DNA from: a plasmid
DNA: 64,000 nt
Direction: 5' to 3' (one strand)
Assembly: GCF_053078305.1 (NCBI RefSeq)
Contig: NZ_CP166875.1
The notes under the pieces were generated by a model that was not told where the DNA came from, did not search any database, and was given only the letters and a program-made list of their open reading frames with translations. The translations under genes were made by a program, and so were the position numbers. This document shows positions 36,993 through 45,146 of this stretch, one piece after another (position 1 is the stretch's first letter; each line of letters starts with the position of its first letter).

Positions 36993-39623
36993 ATGAGTAA
37001 TAACCCACTTGAGGTCGTCACTCAGGCGGTCAATTCACTGCTGACCGCACTTAAATTACCGGATGAATCTGCTCAGGCTAATCAGATCCTCGGTGAGATG
37101 AACTTCCCGCAGTTCAGCCGTCTGCTGCCATACCGTGATTACAACCAGGAATCCGGTCTGTTCATGAATGACTCCACAATGGGCTTTATGCTGGAAGCCA
37201 TTCCCATCAATGGTGCGAATGAGACCATTGTGGAGGCTCTCGACCATATGCTGCGCACCAAACTGCCGCGCGGTATTCCGCTGTGTATCCATCTGATGTC
37301 CAGCCAGCTGGTTGGCGAGCGGATTGAGTACGGGCTGCGTGAGTTCTCCTGGTCAGGTGAACAGGCAGAACGGTTTAACGCCATTACCCGGGCCTATTAC
37401 ATGAAAGCCGCAGAAACACTGTTTCCGCTGCCGGAAGGGTTGAACCTGCCTCTGACCCTGCGCCATTACCGGGTGTTTATCTCGTACTGTTCTCCCTCGA
37501 AGAAAAAAAGCCGGGCCGACATTCTGGAAATGGAAAACCTGGTGAAAATCATCCGGGCGTCTCTGCAGGGAGCATATATCACCACGCAGACGGTGGATGC
37601 ACAGGCTTTCATCGATATTGTCGGGGAGATGATTAACCATAACCCGGACTCCCTGTACCCGAAAAGACGTCAGCTGGACCCGTATTCTGATTTGAATTAT
37701 CAGTGCGTGGAGGACAGTTTTGACCTGAAGGTCCGGGCAGATTACCTGACGCTGGGACTGCGTGAGAACGGCAGGAACAGCACTGCCCGCATCCTGAATT
37801 TCCATCTGGCCCGTAACCCGGAAATCGCCTTCCTGTGGAACATGGCCGACAACTACAGCAACCTGCTGAACCCGGAACTGTCCATCTCCTGCCCGTTCAT
37901 TCTGACGCTGACCCTGGTGGTGGAAGACCAGGTGAAAACCCACAGCGAAGCCAACCTGAAGTACATGGACCTGGAGAAAAAGTCGAAGACCTCCTATGCC
38001 AAATGGTTTCCGTCCGTGGAGAAAGAAGCGAAGGAGTGGGGGGAACTGCGTCAGCGGCTGGGCTCCGGTCAGTCTTCTGTCGTGTCCTACTTCCTCAACA
38101 TCACAGCATTCTGCAAGGACAATAATGAAACGGCACTGGAAGTGGAGCAGGATATCCTGAACAGCTTCCGTAAAAACGGTTTTGAACTGATTTCACCGCG
38201 CTTTAACCACATGCGCAATTTCCTGACCTGCCTGCCCTTTATGGCCGGGAAAGGGTTGTTTAAACAACTGAAAGAGGCCGGAGTGGTTCAGCGCGCAGAG
38301 AGCTTTAATGTGGCCAACCTGATGCCGTTAGTGGCGGATAACCCCCTGACGCCGGCAGGTCTGCTGGCACCCACCTACCGTAACCAGCTGGCGTTTATCG
38401 ATATTTTCTTCCGGGGGATGAATAACACCAACTACAACATGGCGGTCTGTGGCACTTCCGGGGCCGGTAAAACCGGGCTGATACAGCCACTTATCCGCAG
38501 TGTGCTGGACTCCGGGGGTTTTGCTGTGGTGTTCGACATGGGGGATGGCTACAAGTCCCTGTGTGAAAACATGGGGGGCGTATATCTGGACGGTGAAACC
38601 CTGCGCTTTAACCCGTTTGCGAACATCACCGATATTGACCAGTCAGCGGAGCGTGTCCGTGACCAGCTGTCGGTGATGGCCAGCCCCAACGGTAACCTGG
38701 ATGAAGTGCATGAAGGTCTGCTGCTGCAGGCGGTCAGGGCCTCCTGGCTTACCAGACAGAACCGGGCGCGTATTGATGACGTGGTGGATTTCCTGAAAAA
38801 CGCCCGGGATAACGACCAGTATGCCGAGTCCCCGACCATCCGCAGCCGTCTGGATGAAATGATAGTGCTGCTGGACCAGTACACAGCCAACGGTACTTAC
38901 GGCCAGTATTTTAACTCTGATGAACCGTCCCTGCGGGATGACGCAAAAATGGTGGTGCTGGAGCTGGGTGGACTGGAAGACCGTCCGTCCCTGCTGGTTG
39001 CGGTGATGTTCAGCCTTATCATTTACATCGAGAACCGGATGTACCGCACGCCGCGTAACCTCAAGAAACTGAACGTCATTGATGAGGGGTGGCGTCTGCT
39101 GGACTTCAAAAATCACAAGGTCGGTGAGTTTATTGAGAAAGGTTACCGTACCGCCCGCCGTCATACTGGTGCCTATATCACCATCACACAGAACATCGTC
39201 GACTTTGACTCTGACAAGGCCTCCAGTGCGGCCCGTGCGGCATGGGGTAACTCCTCCTACAAAATTATCCTCAAACAGAGTGCGAAGGAGTTCGCGAAAT
39301 ATAACCAGCTGTATCCGGACCAGTTCCTGCCACTGCAGCGCGACATGATTGGTAAGTTTGGTGCGGCCAAAGACCAGTGGTTCAGTTCCTTCCTGCTGCA
39401 GGTGGAAAACCACTCCTCCTGGCACCGTCTGTTTGTGGACCCGCTAAGCCGTGCCATGTACAGCTCTGACGGCCCGGATTTTGAGTTTGTGCAGCAGAAA
39501 CGTAAAGAGGGGCTGAGTATTCATGAGGCGGTGTGGCAGCTGGCGTGGAAGAAGTCAGGGCCGGAGATGGCTTCGCTGGAAGCATGGCTGGAAGAACATG
39601 AGAAATACAGGAGTGTTGCATGA
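36993..39623 (+). CDS. traC: T4SS ATPase TraC (VirB4 family)
   Basis: 876-aa ORF with Walker A (CGTSGAGKT) and gene order. Confidence 0.95.
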   Translation: MSNNPLEVVTQAVNSLLTALKLPDESAQANQILGEMNFPQFSRLLPYRDYNQESGLFMNDSTMGFMLEAIPINGANETIVEALDHMLRTKLPRGIPLCIHLMSSQLVGERIEYGLREFSWSGEQAERFNAITRAYYMKAAETLFPLPEGLNLPLTLRHYRVFISYCSPSKKKSRADILEMENLVKIIRASLQGAYITTQTVDAQAFIDIVGEMINHNPDSLYPKRRQLDPYSDLNYQCVEDSFDLKVRADYLTLGLRENGRNSTARILNFHLARNPEIAFLWNMADNYSNLLNPELSISCPFILTLTLVVEDQVKTHSEANLKYMDLEKKSKTSYAKWFPSVEKEAKEWGELRQRLGSGQSSVVSYFLNITAFCKDNNETALEVEQDILNSFRKNGFELISPRFNHMRNFLTCLPFMAGKGLFKQLKEAGVVQRAESFNVANLMPLVADNPLTPAGLLAPTYRNQLAFIDIFFRGMNNTNYNMAVCGTSGAGKTGLIQPLIRSVLDSGGFAVVFDMGDGYKSLCENMGGVYLDGETLRFNPFANITDIDQSAERVRDQLSVMASPNGNLDEVHEGLLLQAVRASWLTRQNRARIDDVVDFLKNARDNDQYAESPTIRSRLDEMIVLLDQYTANGTYGQYFNSDEPSLRDDAKMVVLELGGLEDRPSLLVAVMFSLIIYIENRMYRTPRNLKKLNVIDEGWRLLDFKNHKVGEFIEKGYRTARRHTGAYITITQNIVDFDSDKASSAARAAWGNSSYKIILKQSAKEFAKYNQLYPDQFLPLQRDMIGKFGAAKDQWFSSFLLQVENHSSWHRLFVDPLSRAMYSSDGPDFEFVQQKRKEGLSIHEAVWQLAWKKSGPEMASLEAWLEEHEKYRSVA

Positions 39624-40006
39624 CCACAACGCAAAAAACGACTGATGTGACAGCCCGTCGACGCAGCCACTGGTGGTGGACGGTGCCGGGATGCCTGGCA
39701 ATGGTGTTACTGAACGCAGCCGTCAGTTACGGCATTGTCAGACTGAACACGCCGGTAACCGTCGCCTTCAACATGAAACAGACAGTGGATGCGTTTTTTG
39801 ACAGCGCCAGCCAGAAAAAACTGTCAGAAGCGCAGTCGAAGGCGCTGGCTGACCGTTTTAACGCGGCACTGGAGGCCAGTCTGCAGACGTGGCAGCAGAA
39901 GCACCACGCTGTCATTCTGGTGTCGCCTGCCGTGGTACAGGGGGCACCGGATATCACCCGTGAAATCCAGCAGGATATTGCCCGGCGAATGAGGGCAGAA
40001 CCATGA
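39620..40006 (+). CDS. trbI: TrbI
   Basis: 128-aa ORF overlapping traC stop, gene order. Confidence 0.85.
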   Translation: MTTTQKTTDVTARRRSHWWWTVPGCLAMVLLNAAVSYGIVRLNTPVTVAFNMKQTVDAFFDSASQKKLSEAQSKALADRFNAALEASLQTWQQKHHAVILVSPAVVQGAPDITREIQQDIARRMRAEP

Positions 40007-40635
40007 GATGCCGGGGGCTGATTGCCCTGCTGGTATGGGGGCAGAGTGTGGCTGCAGCTGATCTTGGCACCTGGGGGGATTTGTGGCCGGTAAAGGAGGC
40101 GGACATGCTGACGGTGATTATGCAGCGTCTGACAGCTCTGGAGCAGTCCGGAGAGATGGGCCGGAAAATGGATGCGTTTAAGGAGCGGGTGATCCGCAAC
40201 AGCCTGCGGCCCCCTGCCGTGCCCGGTATCGGTCGGACGGAGAAATACAGCAGCCGCCTGTTTGACCCGTCTGTCAGACTGGCTGCGGATATCCGGGATA
40301 ACGAAGGTCGTATCTTCGCCCGCCAGGGGGAGGTGATGAACCCGCTGCAGTATGTGCCTTTTAACCAGACACTGTATTTCATCAACGGTGATGATCCTGA
40401 GCAGATTGAATGGATGAAGCGCCAGACGCCTCCCACACTGGAGAGCAAAATTATCCTGGTGCAGGGCAGTATCCCGGAGATGCAGAAGGCTCTGGACAGT
40501 CGTGTTTACTTTGATCAGAACGGCGTGATCTGCCAGCGTCTCGGCATTGATCAGGTGCCGGCACGGGTGAGTGCTGTCAGTGGCGATCGTTTCCTGAAGG
40601 TGGAGTTTATTCCGGTCGGGGAGGGAGGGAAATGA
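40003..40635 (+). CDS. traW: TraW
   Basis: 210-aa ORF, gene order. Confidence 0.88.
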   Translation: MRCRGLIALLVWGQSVAAADLGTWGDLWPVKEADMLTVIMQRLTALEQSGEMGRKMDAFKERVIRNSLRPPAVPGIGRTEKYSSRLFDPSVRLAADIRDNEGRIFARQGEVMNPLQYVPFNQTLYFINGDDPEQIEWMKRQTPPTLESKIILVQGSIPEMQKALDSRVYFDQNGVICQRLGIDQVPARVSAVSGDRFLKVEFIPVGEGGK

Positions 40636-41624
40636 AACGGTGTATGTGGTTGTGTGTGGTTTTGCTGCTGACTGGCCATGTTCCCGCAGCCTCAGCGGAC
40701 GCTGCCTGTGAAGGGCGGTTTGTTAACCCGATCACGGATATCTGCTGGAACTGCATTTTTCCACTGTCGCTGGGCAGCACAAAAGTGAGTCAGGGGAAGG
40801 TGCCGGATACAATAAACCCGTCAATGCCGATCCAGTTCTGTCCTGCGCCACCGCCTGTATTTAAACGTATCGGGCTGGCTATTGGTTACTGGGAGCCGAT
40901 GGCACTGACGGATGTGACCCGCAGTCCGGGATGTATGGTAAATCTTGGAATAACAATCCCGGAGCTGGGGAAAACCGGGCAGGGAACGGCCAAAAAAGAC
41001 GACAAGCAGGTGAACGGGGCATTTTACCATGTTCACTGGTACAAATACCCGCTGACATACTGGCTGAGTATTATCACCTCAGCAGGATGTCTGATGGGCG
41101 GCGATATGGATATCGGGTACATCTCAGAAATTGACCCTACCTGGACAGACAGCAGTCTGACCACCATTCTCAACCCGGAAGCGGTCATCTTTGCAAATCC
41201 GATAGCACAGGGAGCCTGTGCGGTGGATGCCATTGCCAGTGCCTTTAACAAGCCGCTGGATATCCTGTTCTGGTGTGCCGGTTCGCAGGGCAGTATGTAT
41301 CCGTTTAATGGCTGGGTGAGCAATGAATCCAGTCCGTTGCAGTCATCCCTGCTGGTCAGTGAACGGATGGCGTTTAAGCTCCACCGTCAGGGAATGATAA
41401 TGAACAGCATCGGCGTGGATGTGGCTGTCTGTTATGAATATCCGTCGCCCATACTTCCCAAAGAGCGCTGGCGTTATCAGATGGTGAATATGTACCCGGA
41501 CAGCGGACAGTGCCATCCGTTCGGACGCAGTGTGATGCGCTGGGAGACGGGAAAAAATCCGCCCAACACAAAGAAAAACTTCGGTTACCTGATGTGGCGT
41601 AAACGTAACTGTGTGTTCCTGTAA
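40632..41624 (+). CDS. traU: TraU
   Basis: 330-aa ORF, signal peptide, gene order. Confidence 0.92.
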   Translation: MKRCMWLCVVLLLTGHVPAASADAACEGRFVNPITDICWNCIFPLSLGSTKVSQGKVPDTINPSMPIQFCPAPPPVFKRIGLAIGYWEPMALTDVTRSPGCMVNLGITIPELGKTGQGTAKKDDKQVNGAFYHVHWYKYPLTYWLSIITSAGCLMGGDMDIGYISEIDPTWTDSSLTTILNPEAVIFANPIAQGACAVDAIASAFNKPLDILFWCAGSQGSMYPFNGWVSNESSPLQSSLLVSERMAFKLHRQGMIMNSIGVDVAVCYEYPSPILPKERWRYQMVNMYPDSGQCHPFGRSVMRWETGKNPPNTKKNFGYLMWRKRNCVFL

Positions 41625-41637
41625 TCGGGAAAATGTG

Positions 41638-42180
41638 ATGCGCAACAGTAAAGTGCAACTTGTATCAATCCTCAGACAGGTCAGTCTTTCACTGAACACG
41701 GAGCCATTACGACAGTTTATCTCTCTGAGGGAGATTGCAGAAGAGACGGATCACGTCGCTGCTCGTTTGTCCGGAGGAAAACGGGTAACACCTGCACAAA
41801 TTTATGAATTGTGTGCACAGTTATGGATGGCCAGGATGAAGGCAGTTGAAGTTTATGGGCGACATTCTGATGTGGTGATGTCTCTGGAAAGACAGACTGA
41901 TTTACTTGAGGCTGCAGGCAACGTATTAAAACAACGCTGGTTTTACCGTCCGTGGGGATCATCAAAAGCATCTGTGATGCTGACAGGTATACTGGTGATC
42001 CCCGTATTTCTGGTTTTATCCGGATTGTTGAGTGCAGGGTATCCCGGGTTATTATGTATTACCGTATCCGGCTGTTATTTTTCCGGGATTGCCGCTTTTT
42101 CTTTGCGGGCTAAAGATCCAGTCGGGCTTTGCTGGTCTGTGTTCTGTTTTATTCTGCTATATCTGCTCCTGAAAAAATGA
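41638..42180 (+). CDS. Hypothetical membrane protein (about 180 aa), non-canonical ORF after traU
   Basis: ORF 41611..42180; C-terminal TM helices; low GC. Confidence 0.55.
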   Translation: MRNSKVQLVSILRQVSLSLNTEPLRQFISLREIAEETDHVAARLSGGKRVTPAQIYELCAQLWMARMKAVEVYGRHSDVVMSLERQTDLLEAAGNVLKQRWFYRPWGSSKASVMLTGILVIPVFLVLSGLLSAGYPGLLCITVSGCYFSGIAAFSLRAKDPVGLCWSVFCFILLYLLLKK

Positions 42181-42182
42181 GA

Positions 42183-42974
42183 TTAATTATTCTGCGTCTG
42201 AATAATGAATGCTCCGCCATTGCGATGTACTCTGAATCCATTGGGATGCCTCCTGCAGGAGAACAGTCTGTAGCGGGTTTTTCCCCCATACCTCAGATTC
42301 AGGACAATAGTTTCACAGAGTGGCGTCTTCCTTGCCTTTTCTTTATATAGTATACCTTTTTTTTTCAGGTTATTAGCTATTCTGTTTCGGATTCCGTGGC
42401 GCAGGATGTGAGACTGTAATGTGATCGTGTTATAAGACGGATAGCATAATATGAAATGTTCAATATTTCCGACAAGCTTGTCTGCGTTGATTCTTGAGGA
42501 TACTTTGACAGATGGTCTGGTAATATATTGTGGATGTATATCGATTCTCAGGCTGGATATAAAGGGGGTAAGATAAAGACCCGTAACAGGCGTTCTGAGC
42601 ATGGACGATGAGAAAAAGAACAGAAAAAACCATAGTGTAATTACAGATATCCCTGACCTGATAATTACAGAGTATATGTTTCCGCTGAAAGGTGAATAAT
42701 CTTTTTGTATCATCAGATGTATGATGGATGACAGTAAAAACAAAATAAAGCCAGCCGGGAATGGTCTTCTCAGAACTCTGAAAAAGAGACTGTTATTTAT
42801 GAAGCGAAAACGAAGCAGGACCGTTAACAACAGCGATAAGAATATCAGTATTATGACCATTTGCACTCCGAAACTGATACATGAACAGATGTTTAAGGGT
42901 GATATTAAATGAGTGAAGGGACAAGAGTAAATGATTTTGCTTATGTCAAACAGGCCCTTTTGGCGGTGTTTCAT
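42183..42974 (-). CDS. Possible antisense-oriented polytopic membrane protein (263-aa ORF)
   Basis: 790-bp open frame in AT-rich DNA with no long plus-strand ORF across the same interval; very hydrophobic translation. Confidence 0.3.
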   Translation of the reverse strand: MKHRQKGLFDISKIIYSCPFTHLISPLNICSCISFGVQMVIILIFLSLLLTVLLRFRFINNSLFFRVLRRPFPAGFILFLLSSIIHLMIQKDYSPFSGNIYSVIIRSGISVITLWFFLFFFSSSMLRTPVTGLYLTPFISSLRIDIHPQYITRPSVKVSSRINADKLVGNIEHFILCYPSYNTITLQSHILRHGIRNRIANNLKKKGILYKEKARKTPLCETIVLNLRYGGKTRYRLFSCRRHPNGFRVHRNGGAFIIQTQNN

Positions 42975-43355
42975 CGGATGAATACCCGGCCGCTCACCAG
43001 GCTATGTGAAAAAGATGATATTCAGCGTGGAATTGCAGATATTCAATGGATGTTACATCATCACTATTATCCATCACCCGGACAGGTTTGTTTTATAATA
43101 TTTTTATTGCGGGATGAGAAGTTCCGGGTAGTGCGGGAAGATGGGCGTCAGTCATTCCTTGCAGTTGAAATTCAGTCGTTAATTGATGTTCTGAAAGATA
43201 TACGGAAATACCTGCAGTTTGTGACACGGTATGACTGTGATGGTTGTATTATCAGGCTGCATGCCAGTGCTGAACGTAAATACCTGTGGATTTTCCTTGA
43301 GTGTGTAATTGTGTTTATTTTGTGTGCTGTGCTGTTTTTTCTGATTATCTGTTAA
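42909..43355 (+). CDS. Hypothetical protein, 148 aa, C-terminal TM anchor
   Basis: ORF in low-GC insert. Confidence 0.5.
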   Translation: MSEGTRVNDFAYVKQALLAVFHRMNTRPLTRLCEKDDIQRGIADIQWMLHHHYYPSPGQVCFIIFLLRDEKFRVVREDGRQSFLAVEIQSLIDVLKDIRKYLQFVTRYDCDGCIIRLHASAERKYLWIFLECVIVFILCAVLFFLIIC

Positions 43356-43367
43356 AAACACCTGGTG

Positions 43368-43543
43368 GTGAACATGTACCCGGACAGCGGACAGCGGACA
43401 GCGGACAGCGGACAGCGGACAGCGGACAGTGCCATCCGTTCGGGCGCAGTGTGATGCGCCGGGAGACGGAAAAAAATCCGCCTGACACAAAGAAAAACTT
43501 CGGTTACCTGATGTGGCGTAAACGTAACTGTGTATTTCTGTAA
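43368..43543 (+). repeat. Duplicated 3' end of traU (remnant) with expanded GGACAGC heptamer array
   Basis: About 175 bp highly similar to 41490-41624 (traU 3' end), except that the heptamer GGACAGC is present in about 6 tandem units (43378-43422) versus about 2 in intact traU. Confidence 0.9.
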
Positions 43544-43569
43544 CTTAAACAAAAAGAGGAATATTTTAA

Positions 43570-43902
43570 ATGGAAAAGAAATTAAGCAGTAAATACATTC
43601 ATATTTATATGAGTATATCCTGTGTGTTCATTCGTTTGACAGGCAAAGCATTAAAATTGTTTCCTTTTGCACTGGTGATGCTATTCACGGTGTTGTTTTA
43701 TTTTATGCCTGAAAATGTTATCTGTGACATTATCAGTGAATGGCAGAGAAGTGATGTGTCAGACAGGATCAGAGTTATCAGACTATATCTGGGAACAACT
43801 TTTTTATGCACCTGGGCGGCTGTTTTTTTGGAGTTTCTCTGCTCTGATGAGTTTCTGCCGGGAAAGAGATTAAACAAAAATGAAGAAGAGAATAACGGGT
43901 AA
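43570..43902 (+). CDS. Hypothetical membrane protein, 110 aa
   Basis: ORF with hydrophobic segments, between the traU remnant and trbC. Confidence 0.5.
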   Translation: MEKKLSSKYIHIYMSISCVFIRLTGKALKLFPFALVMLFTVLFYFMPENVICDIISEWQRSDVSDRIRVIRLYLGTTFLCTWAAVFLEFLCSDEFLPGKRLNKNEEENNG

Positions 43903-44130
43903 TATCTGACTCATTTTATGTGCATCGGTCAGAAATGAATTAATGATTTAACAGAGTGAATATCCGGTATCGTTTATCTAATTGCTGCCAGTCTCAGAAA
44001 AAAGATAAATGGAGAAAGAAGTTAATCAACGATCTTCGTTGTGTTTAACATGGCGTCAGTTATCTCCAGGCTTGCTCTATTGAGCACCTCATTATGACGA
44101 TTAATTACTGTCTGTTTGCAGGAGAATTAT

Positions 44131-44769
44131 ATGAACAAAAAAATATACATTTTATTCGCCCTGACAGCAGGATTGTTTCTTTCTGCCCATGCTTCGGAAA
44201 ATGTGAATACGCCCGAAAATCGCCAGTTCCTGAAGCAGCAGGAAACACTGAGTCAGCAGTTGCGTGAAAAGCCGGACACACAACTGCAGGCATGGGCAGA
44301 ACAGCAGGTCAGGGCGAATCCCCTTCAGCATGCCGATAACCAGTTTCTCGATGAACTGGTCCGTAAACAGCAGGCTGCTCAGAAAGACAAACCACAGCAG
44401 GGGGCCGTGTATTTTGTGTCGTTCTCCATTCCCGAAGAGGGACTGAAACGGATGCTGGGAGAAACCAGGCACTACGGCATTCCGGCCACACTGCGGGGTA
44501 TGGTGAACAATGACCTGAAGACTACCGCTGAAGCCGTGTTGTCCCTGGTAAAAGATGGCGCGACCGATGGTGTTCAGATTGACCCGACGTTGTTTTCACA
44601 GTACGGCATCCGCAGCGTGCCGGCCCTGGTGGTGTTCTGCAGCCAGGGGCACGACATCATCCGGGGAAATCTGCGCGTCAGGCAGGCGCTGGAAAAAGTG
44701 GCCGCCACGGGAGACTGCCGGCAGGTGGCTCAGGGACTGCTGGACGGCACCGGGGATAAGCTGCAATGA
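44131..44769 (+). CDS. trbC: TrbC
   Basis: Translation MNKKIYILFALTAGLFLSAHASENVNTPENRQFLKQQE... recognised as TrbC. Confidence 0.9.
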   Translation: MNKKIYILFALTAGLFLSAHASENVNTPENRQFLKQQETLSQQLREKPDTQLQAWAEQQVRANPLQHADNQFLDELVRKQQAAQKDKPQQGAVYFVSFSIPEEGLKRMLGETRHYGIPATLRGMVNNDLKTTAEAVLSLVKDGATDGVQIDPTLFSQYGIRSVPALVVFCSQGHDIIRGNLRVRQALEKVAATGDCRQVAQGLLDGTGDKLQ

Positions 44770-45146
44770 GTTTACCTGCCGGGTATTACCGGATTGAACC
44801 GGACATCCGTGCACTGGTGGCCGCGATGAACGTTCACGGATTCCGTACATATGCCTCCTGTCAGGGACATGGTTTCCCGGTCACAAAGCTGCTGCCTTAT
44901 ATTGCCTTTGCCTGTCCGGTAAAAATGACTGCCCTTCTTGAGCAGCGACTGCGGCAGGATGCTGAATCAGCAATACCACGTCTGACATGGGGATGGTCGG
45001 TGAAGGGGGCTTTTAACAGTGACCTTCAGCTCTGTTTCCGGCTTCAGCCGGAAGGTCCTCATTGCTGGTATCACCGGTACTGTCGTCGTTCACTGCGTGC
45101 AGACTTCAGGACGCTGATATTGTTACTGAAGTCGTTATCTGAGTAG
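44766..45146 (+). CDS. Hypothetical Cys/His-rich protein, 126 aa, translationally coupled to trbC
   Basis: ORF overlapping the trbC stop (ATGA); normal GC. Confidence 0.5.
   Translation: MSLPAGYYRIEPDIRALVAAMNVHGFRTYASCQGHGFPVTKLLPYIAFACPVKMTALLEQRLRQDAESAIPRLTWGWSVKGAFNSDLQLCFRLQPEGPHCWYHRYCRRSLRADFRTLILLLKSLSE

Follow-up and report, generated by a model that had tools for sequence, protein, structure and literature searches.

A pseudogene copy of the traU 3' end and a conserved three-gene membrane module between traU and trbC of an F-like plasmid

The stretch of DNA analyzed here (hereafter, the window) comprises 64,000 nucleotides (nt) of a plasmid (RefSeq assembly GCF_053078305.1, contig NZ_CP166875.1) and carries an F-type transfer (tra) operon. 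In plasmid F, trbC follows traU directly, as an earlier reading of the window sequence (hereafter, the original prediction) correctly stated; only 8 nt separate the traU stop from the trbC start. In the window, the same two genes are separated by a gap (41625-44130), which holds four small genes, here called orfA, orfM, orfB' and orfC, together with a second, nonfunctional copy of the 3' end of traU (the relic) that contains an expanded heptamer array. The features of the gap and its borders are listed below; loci from other plasmids used for comparison carry L numbers, and aa denotes amino acids.

40632-41624, plus strand: traU, 330 aa, functional; supported by the list of open reading frames (ORFs) and by the annotation of the Prokaryotic Genome Annotation Pipeline (PGAP) in the 99.4%-identical plasmid NZ_CP045714
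41638-42180, plus strand: orfA, 180 aa, first gene of the orfA-orfM-orfB triad; a PGAP coding sequence in relatives
42183-42860, minus strand: orfM, 225 aa, antisense to the tra operon
42357-42365, no strand assigned: T9 run, read as AAA AAA AAA (Lys166-168 of orfM) on the minus strand
42909-43355, plus strand: orfB', 148 aa, truncated, a distant paralogue of orfA
43366-43543, plus strand: traU relic, a pseudogene that duplicates traU nt 851-993 together with the stop codon; right copy of a direct repeat
43381-43429, no strand assigned: heptamer array (CGGACAG)x7; 7.0 copies with 100% matches in Tandem Repeats Finder
43570-43902, plus strand: orfC, 110 aa, two transmembrane helices
43979-44108, no strand assigned: remnant of an ORF pair, seen as blastn blocks with 90% identity to a 59-aa (plus) / 79-aa (minus) pair
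44131-44769, plus strand: trbC, 212 aa, starting with the ATG at 44131; a conserved gene that borders the variable gap on the right

The 2.5-kb block separating traU from trbC had been described as poor in guanine and cytosine (GC), and it is: the gap has a GC content of 41%, whereas traC-traU, trbC and traN have 52-55%. Low GC is typical of the gap gene families in every lineage, for example 35% in orfC of R100 and 34% in orfM of Hafnia, and thus gives no sign of recent arrival. The three or four hydrophobic ORFs proposed for the block correspond in part to orfA, orfB and orfC; the fourth real gene is the minus-strand orfM, which had been overlooked. All four products are predicted membrane proteins, in agreement with the membrane-protein content that had been suggested. 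The ratio of nonsynonymous to synonymous substitution rates (dN/dS) is 0.2-0.4 for orfA, orfM, orfB and orfC, which shows that these are real genes under purifying selection.

The second traU 3' end lies where the original prediction had placed it. Its counterpart, the left repeat copy, is formed by the last 143 nt of traU (41482-41624) and contains two CGGACAG units at 41497-41510. The repeat consists of a 29-nt stretch at 97% identity and a 128-nt stretch at 95%, with the array between the two, and the copies mismatch at 7 of 115 positions. Only profile residues 288-330 of the NCBIfam TraU model are matched by the relic, and the RefSeq annotation of relatives lists it among the pseudogenes ('TraU family protein; frameshifted; incomplete; missing N-terminus'). 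The relic-array structure is present in 37 of 5,426 complete E. coli genomes, plasmid-borne every time, and 25 PLSDB records show the duplication. A Salmonella Pomona plasmid (L007) carries the same structure with 8 heptamer units, at about 86-90% identity across the region.

Comparison with locus L018 indicates how the joint was formed. L018, which was reached via its longer orfB (193 aa, 60% identical to orfB of the window), reads traU, orfA, a minus-strand gene of 224 aa, orfB, orfC (96 aa) and trbC; it has no relic, and full-length orfB is directly followed by orfC. The orfB homology with L018 stops at about 43343, 23 nt ahead of the relic, and the window orfB ends three codons further on. 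In an alignment with L018, L021 and L022, full-length orfB has 193-200 aa and three transmembrane helices; the window protein falls short of this, with 148 aa and one hydrophobic segment, its last two helices having been lost at the relic junction. On the other side of the relic, orfC starts 26 nt past the relic stop, a spacing equal to that after the intact traU of L004. Because the relic-orfC spacing is native, and because orfB is full length in L018, which lacks a relic, a single crossover is the simplest reading. The gap would then have two layers, i.e., the triad, an old lineage-specific accessory of F-type operons, and orfC, a filler gene in most R100-like plasmids. One illegitimate crossover would have joined the 3' part of orfB in a triad plasmid to about nt 851 of traU in an orfC plasmid, with the latter, another F-like plasmid, contributing the 'traU tail-orfC-trbC' segment. 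Such an exchange would have cost orfB its last two transmembrane helices and left a promoterless 143-nt traU 3' fragment. It is therefore quite probable that the gap represents a recombination hot spot in its occupied form and that the relic is the scar of a crossover between two F-like plasmids. The original prediction had likewise taken the traU-like segment for a recombination scar, and this part of it is supported; however, it attributed the scar to insertion of a cargo module, which does not fit orfA, orfM and orfB, a conserved triad that belongs to this very gap; the crossover joined two versions of the gap. The event is old, since the Salmonella copy has the same junction yet differs by about 10%; the relic has been kept while the modules of E. 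coli and Salmonella diverged (by about 10-14% of nucleotides). In L005, an independent relic comprises traU nt 675-993, compared with nt 851-993 in the window, and the differing left ends indicate a recurrent process that is not site-specific.

Once formed, the relic and the live traU flank the triad as direct repeats, so that homologous recombination could delete it; the traU homology arms might also move the triad into other F-like backbones and swap the DNA downstream. On both flanks, L004 (NZ_CP027458) shows 99-100% identity with the window, and what it lacks is exactly the inter-repeat DNA. Its traU tail is chimeric: five diagnostic sites in a row have the traU base and the remaining two have that of the relic, which places the crossover inside the repeat. 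Five more records share the match profile of L004, giving six triad-deleted plasmids in total. Downstream exchange is seen in L002, L006 and L009, in which the triad and relic are 98-99% identical but the DNA past the relic differs (the 59/79-aa pair instead of orfC); in these plasmids, the last diagnostic relic bases change together with the downstream DNA. Moreover, when the window is compared with Salmonella L007, synonymous divergence (dS) reaches 0.98 in traU and only 0.13 in orfA and 0.34 in orfB, and the low values of the triad next to the high value of traU indicate that the module moved between diverged backbones. From these comparisons we infer that the relic and the live traU would make the triad a homology-flanked cassette. 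A scan of 39620-44800 against L007 gave a mosaic of identity (trbI/traW about 0.90-0.95, traU 0.70-0.88, triad 0.88-0.98, orfC 0.62-0.70, mid-trbC about 0.94), indicating several recombination breakpoints in 5 kb.

The heptamer had been reported to expand from about 2 to about 6 units of GGACAGC, a fair description: in that register, the array has six GGACAGC and one GGACAGT, i.e., seven CGGACAG. Relic counts of 2, 5, 6, 7 (the window) and 8 occur among carriers, in plasmids otherwise 98-99% identical. In each live traU counted there are two units, either both exact CGGACAG or, in L003, L007 and L008, one exact and one degenerate (CGGACAGCGGGCAG); the count varies in the relic only. In the live gene, a change in heptamer number would shift the frame of the last 40 codons, and the tract would thus be held at two, whereas in the dead copy it would be free to slip. 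The expansion may accordingly be ascribed to slippage on which the dead relic imposes no constraint.

The triad itself runs plus, minus, plus between traU and trbC, and the window matches this order and orientation. Order, orientation and position are kept in six diverged lineages, namely the window, Salmonella L007, L018, Klebsiella L021/L023, Klebsiella L022 and Hafnia L024. The arrangement traU, orfA, orfM, orfB, trbC is found in Klebsiella plasmids pKP91 and pKPN-6a23, K. pneumoniae ATCC 13883 and Hafnia paralvei. In the F-type operons of E. coli, Salmonella, Klebsiella and Hafnia and in L018, the triad was found in the traU-trbC gap only. The Klebsiella triads, e.g., those of pKPN-6a23 and pKP91 (WP_012539960 / WP_012539946 / WP_012539939), contain the same three families in the same order, orientation and traU-trbC position; they differ from the window in sequence (26-48% identity), in having a full-length orfB (198-200 aa, three transmembrane helices) and in lacking both relic and orfC. 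In pKP91 (L021, NC_011281, Klebsiella variicola), traU is unannotated and appears 5'-truncated, with a match to traU nt 347-993 only; the plasmid is typed as non-mobilizable, and its triad is still intact and annotated. Across lineages, identity is 78-93% for TraU, 27-58% for orfA and 32-63% for orfM, so that divergence of the triad roughly tracks that of the backbone. This parallel fits long residence of the triad in a sub-lineage of F-type operons better than recent import.

Homologues of orfA occupy the same position in L018 and L021-L024 (27-58% identity), and in a large protein database the relatives of orfA and orfB are close ones only, from E. coli and Salmonella. The AlphaFold2 model of orfA, with a predicted local distance difference test score (pLDDT) of 78.6, has an N-terminal four-helix bundle followed by three C-terminal transmembrane helices. 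orfA and orfB are distant paralogues (hhalign probability 96.7%, expectation value (E) 4e-10), and the hidden Markov model (HMM) of orfA finds orfB at E 5e-9. The dN/dS of orfA is 0.21-0.38, and that of orfB' against Salmonella is 0.21 despite the truncation.

The gene orfM was missed by RefSeq in the window and is unannotated in close E. coli relatives. The minus-strand ORF spans 42183-42974 (263 aa), and the homologous ATG at 42860 gives a protein of 225 aa. This protein shares 62% amino-acid identity with the product of the 224-aa gene of L018 (E 3e-85; DNA about 70% identical). Homologues were found by tblastn in 85 plasmid records, 57 of them from Klebsiella, many annotated as hypothetical protein, and a profile search of species-representative genomes returned two loci only, in Klebsiella and Hafnia; the phage collection gave no tblastn match. 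Several features mark orfM as a gene: its dN/dS is 0.23 with an excess of third-position changes, its ORF is intact in Salmonella, and an invariant GGAG (Shine-Dalgarno) lies 5-8 nt upstream of its ATG in six lineages. In the cross-lineage alignment, no orfM promoter was identified; the ribosome-binding site alone is conserved. In the protein, 3-4 transmembrane helices at the N-terminus are followed by a conserved domain at the C-terminus (VLNLRYGGKTRYRLF..HPNGF.V.RNGGAF), and the structure model (pLDDT 65) likewise shows 3-4 transmembrane helices and a poorly modelled alpha/beta C-terminal domain. According to frame analysis and multi-piece tblastn, orfM is frameshifted exactly at the T9/A9 run in L002, L003 and L009, and one carrier has orfM deleted. 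The frameshift could be real slippage or inactivation, or a homopolymer error of long-read assemblies. An antisense gene inside the operon has a precedent in artA of F, a non-essential gene on the strand opposing the long tra transcript. However, the two share no sequence relationship in HMM searches, and artA lies at trbA-traQ and encodes 104 aa compared with the 225 aa of orfM.

The third ORF on the tra strand, orfC, belongs to a far more common family, with tblastn matches in 2,026 plasmid records compared with about 3,650 that have a traU tail of the window type (~55%). In each locus whose context was examined, members sit between traU and trbC on the tra strand. The family is diverse: its members are 35-96% identical and fall into 85 protein clusters, in none of which was a Pfam domain found. 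The alignment nonetheless has 25 invariant columns and describes proteins about 95-115 aa long that have two hydrophobic helices and the motifs VFIRL/LKLFPF and W(Q/K)xxD; orfC of the window agrees with the family in size, helices and motifs, and it has its own AAGAGGA ribosome-binding site. R100 (NR1) carries a 101-aa member (WP_000224416; 48% identity, HMM score 1e-39) directly after traU, 26-29 nt past the stop, with two transmembrane helices and the VF/LxRL...LKLFPF and W-x2-D motifs. The R100 ORF follows a live traU, whereas orfC of the window follows a dead relic. The presence of orfC in R100 and in 2,026 records indicates that part of the block is the usual state of the F-like gap; a small two-helix gene at this place is the common condition, and F the exception. 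Thus, the block is 'non-canonical', as it had been called, relative to F only. Whether the same ORFs recur at this position with an assigned function in most F-like plasmids had been raised as a test of the original prediction; orfC does recur in position, although with no assigned function, and for the triad the answer is no. Between orfC and trbC, 130 nt (43979-44108) are 90% identical to the 3' ends of the convergent 59-aa (plus) / 79-aa (minus) ORF pair, which is intact between relic and trbC in L002, L006 and L009 and constitutes a second sense/antisense pair of the gap.

Searches for the function of the gap proteins were uniformly negative. When orfA, orfB, orfC, orfM and a 126-aa ORF found downstream of trbC (see below) were compared with NCBIfam, PHROGs, PADLOC and Pfam, no assigned family was found, and among the queries the relic alone gave a match (TraU C-terminus). 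A sequence-profile search of the PDB gave no match, and fold searches with Foldseek returned uncharacterised Enterobacterales relatives or generic four-helix bundles only. No paralogues of the four genes were found by HMM among the tra ORFs of F or R100, and no paper on the gap ORFs or their accession numbers was found in the literature. A scan of the sequence for promoters and terminators gave sites no more numerous than in shuffled sequence. F lacks the gap genes, traU adjoins trbC with no gap genes in the pKpQIL-type plasmid pBIC1a (PMC6286996), and the triad-deleted plasmids are still typed as conjugative; in that sense, the genes are dispensable. orfA, orfB' and orfC would probably be read with the tra operon as inner-membrane proteins, and orfM would be transcribed against it. 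The four proteins would be dispensable accessories of the transfer apparatus, neither toxins nor defence genes.

Several points weigh against this overall picture of a crossover scar with a freely slipping tract and dispensable accessory genes. A live traU with the exact relic allele was not found, the best being 91%, and the direction of some of the exchanges, deletion or insertion, is inferred by parsimony. In-frame heptamer counts make up five of seven observations (2, 2, 5, 5, 8), marginally more than expected by chance if these were independent. The 'conjugative' status of the deletion derivatives derives from software typing, not from a mating test. Finally, the conserved antisense layout and purifying selection, even on the truncated orfB, suggest a real function.

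The last point bears on the possibility, already hinted at in the original prediction, that the gap ORFs are functional cargo for entry exclusion, immunity or toxin-like activity, exerted in the inner membrane of the donor while the tra operon is on. Four predicted membrane proteins under purifying selection would suit such a role, as would the great diversity of orfC (35-96% identity) within a conserved operon, because specificity determinants such as TraS are similarly diverse. However, neither sequences nor folds of the gap proteins resemble known entry-exclusion, immunity, toxin-antitoxin or anti-phage defence families, dN/dS stays below 0.4 with no sign of positive selection, and orfM is frameshifted or deleted in several carriers; the proposal is thus considered unlikely. 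The conserved antisense placement of orfM might also allow regulatory coupling to tra transcription. A more specific idea, for which we would give rather long odds, is that orfM is expressed in tra-repressed cells only, being silenced by transcriptional interference once the operon is active, and that orfA and orfB, both paralogous membrane proteins with a four-helix bundle, are confined to transfer-competent cells. The triad would then be a conjugation-coupled unit with two opposite membrane states, e.g., an exclusion/immunity or addiction-like device, and, if true, would add a novel type of accessory system to F-type type IV secretion systems.

It is highly unlikely that the heptamer tract is a phase-variation switch for a TraU C-terminal peptide encoded by the relic or for orfC translation, although two observations invite the idea. 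Copy number varies among near-identical plasmids, and with 2, 5 or 8 units the 43-residue TraU tail, whose end lies 26 nt upstream of orfC, has an ATG in its reading frame. Nevertheless, counts of 6 and 7 occur too, the window itself (7) is out of frame, and the in-frame cases are not independent, as L002 hardly differs from L006 and a count of 2 is ancestral. In addition, orfC has its own ribosome-binding site, the relic is called a pseudogene by RefSeq, and no promoter-like site was found on the coding strand near the relic, the sole nearby match (43372-43344) being on the opposite strand. The window resembles heptanucleotide contingency loci in its perfect tandem array of 7-nt units, the number of which varies among close relatives; it differs from them in that the array lies in a pseudogene rather than at the promoter or within the 5' coding region of a live, intact gene, and in that the array has no consistent frame effect.

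Islands inserting at tRNA genes or at the 3' ends of other genes bring a substitute for the displaced gene end with them. By analogy, the block could be a site-specific cassette, with the traU 3' end as attachment site of an integrating element; inserted DNA bounded by direct repeats of the target-gene 3' end and the existence of plasmids with an empty site would be in keeping with this. The reading is scarcely credible, however: no integrase or recombinase lies in or beside the block according to the ORF list and domain searches, and no fixed core is present, as the relic begins at nt 851 in the window and nt 675 in L005. The left junction falls inside orfB and truncates it, and the crossover in the deleted plasmids lies in a long identical stretch, as homologous recombination predicts. 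An assembly artefact, which the original prediction had named as a potential refutation and which only the general risk posed by repeats would favor, can be practically dismissed, because the structure is shared by the 37 E. coli genomes, which come from different laboratories, the 25 PLSDB records and the diverged Salmonella plasmid with its 8 units, and because the two copies mismatch at the 7 positions noted above. A diversity-generating retroelement was also considered and ruled out: there is no reverse transcriptase, and the seven mismatches include all four transitions (A/G, T/C, G/A, C/T) and are not adenine-specific.

As kinds of feature, a hot spot for accessory genes, a relic of a gene end and drift of a microsatellite are already known; it is the gene families that are uncharacterised. 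The joint is a product of ordinary plasmid evolution that exposes a conserved triad and a very common small gene. As in gene-end relics and direct-repeat deletion in general, a promoterless 3' fragment stands at the joint, and repeats of 128-143 nt support precise deletion; the relic of the window differs in having been retained during the divergence between the E. coli and Salmonella modules and in having served as a repeated crossover point. It is a clear natural case in which a gene fragment makes a module a homology-flanked cassette that can be lost or moved, and it is a useful example when mosaic tra regions are read and plasmids are typed. The traU-trbC junction is poorly represented by F, since the gap is occupied by an uncharacterised gene for a small membrane protein in most F-like plasmids, among them IncFII types of clinical importance, and a subset carries the conserved three-gene membrane module with its often unannotated antisense gene. 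The understanding of conjugation is unaltered unless the module has a transfer-linked function.

Other cargo was observed in the same gap and elsewhere in the operon. In the traU-trbC gap of L005 (2475-3418) and L014 (3529-4760), a 152/153-aa protein with a Walker-A-like GEEGTGKS motif (P-loop) is encoded together with a 150-aa partner, which is 34% identical to a 173-aa protein in the gap of L011; in L014, an orfC-family gene lies between the genes of the P-loop protein and its partner. Between trbC and traN, which overlap in F, the window has the 126-aa ORF mentioned above (44766-45146, plus strand). This ORF is conserved in other F-like plasmids (123 aa, 88-90% identity), where a gene for a 140-aa HNH endonuclease comes next, and it has no family match except for a weak PHROG match (E 0.005). 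The traC-trbI gap of L011 (361-1890), L012 and L013 holds a 138-159-aa ORF and an opposite-strand ORF of 220-368 aa, and the traR-traC gap of R100 (L017, 7699-9251) holds four hypothetical ORFs. These uncharacterised ORFs in other tra gaps indicate that the operon has several cargo hot spots.

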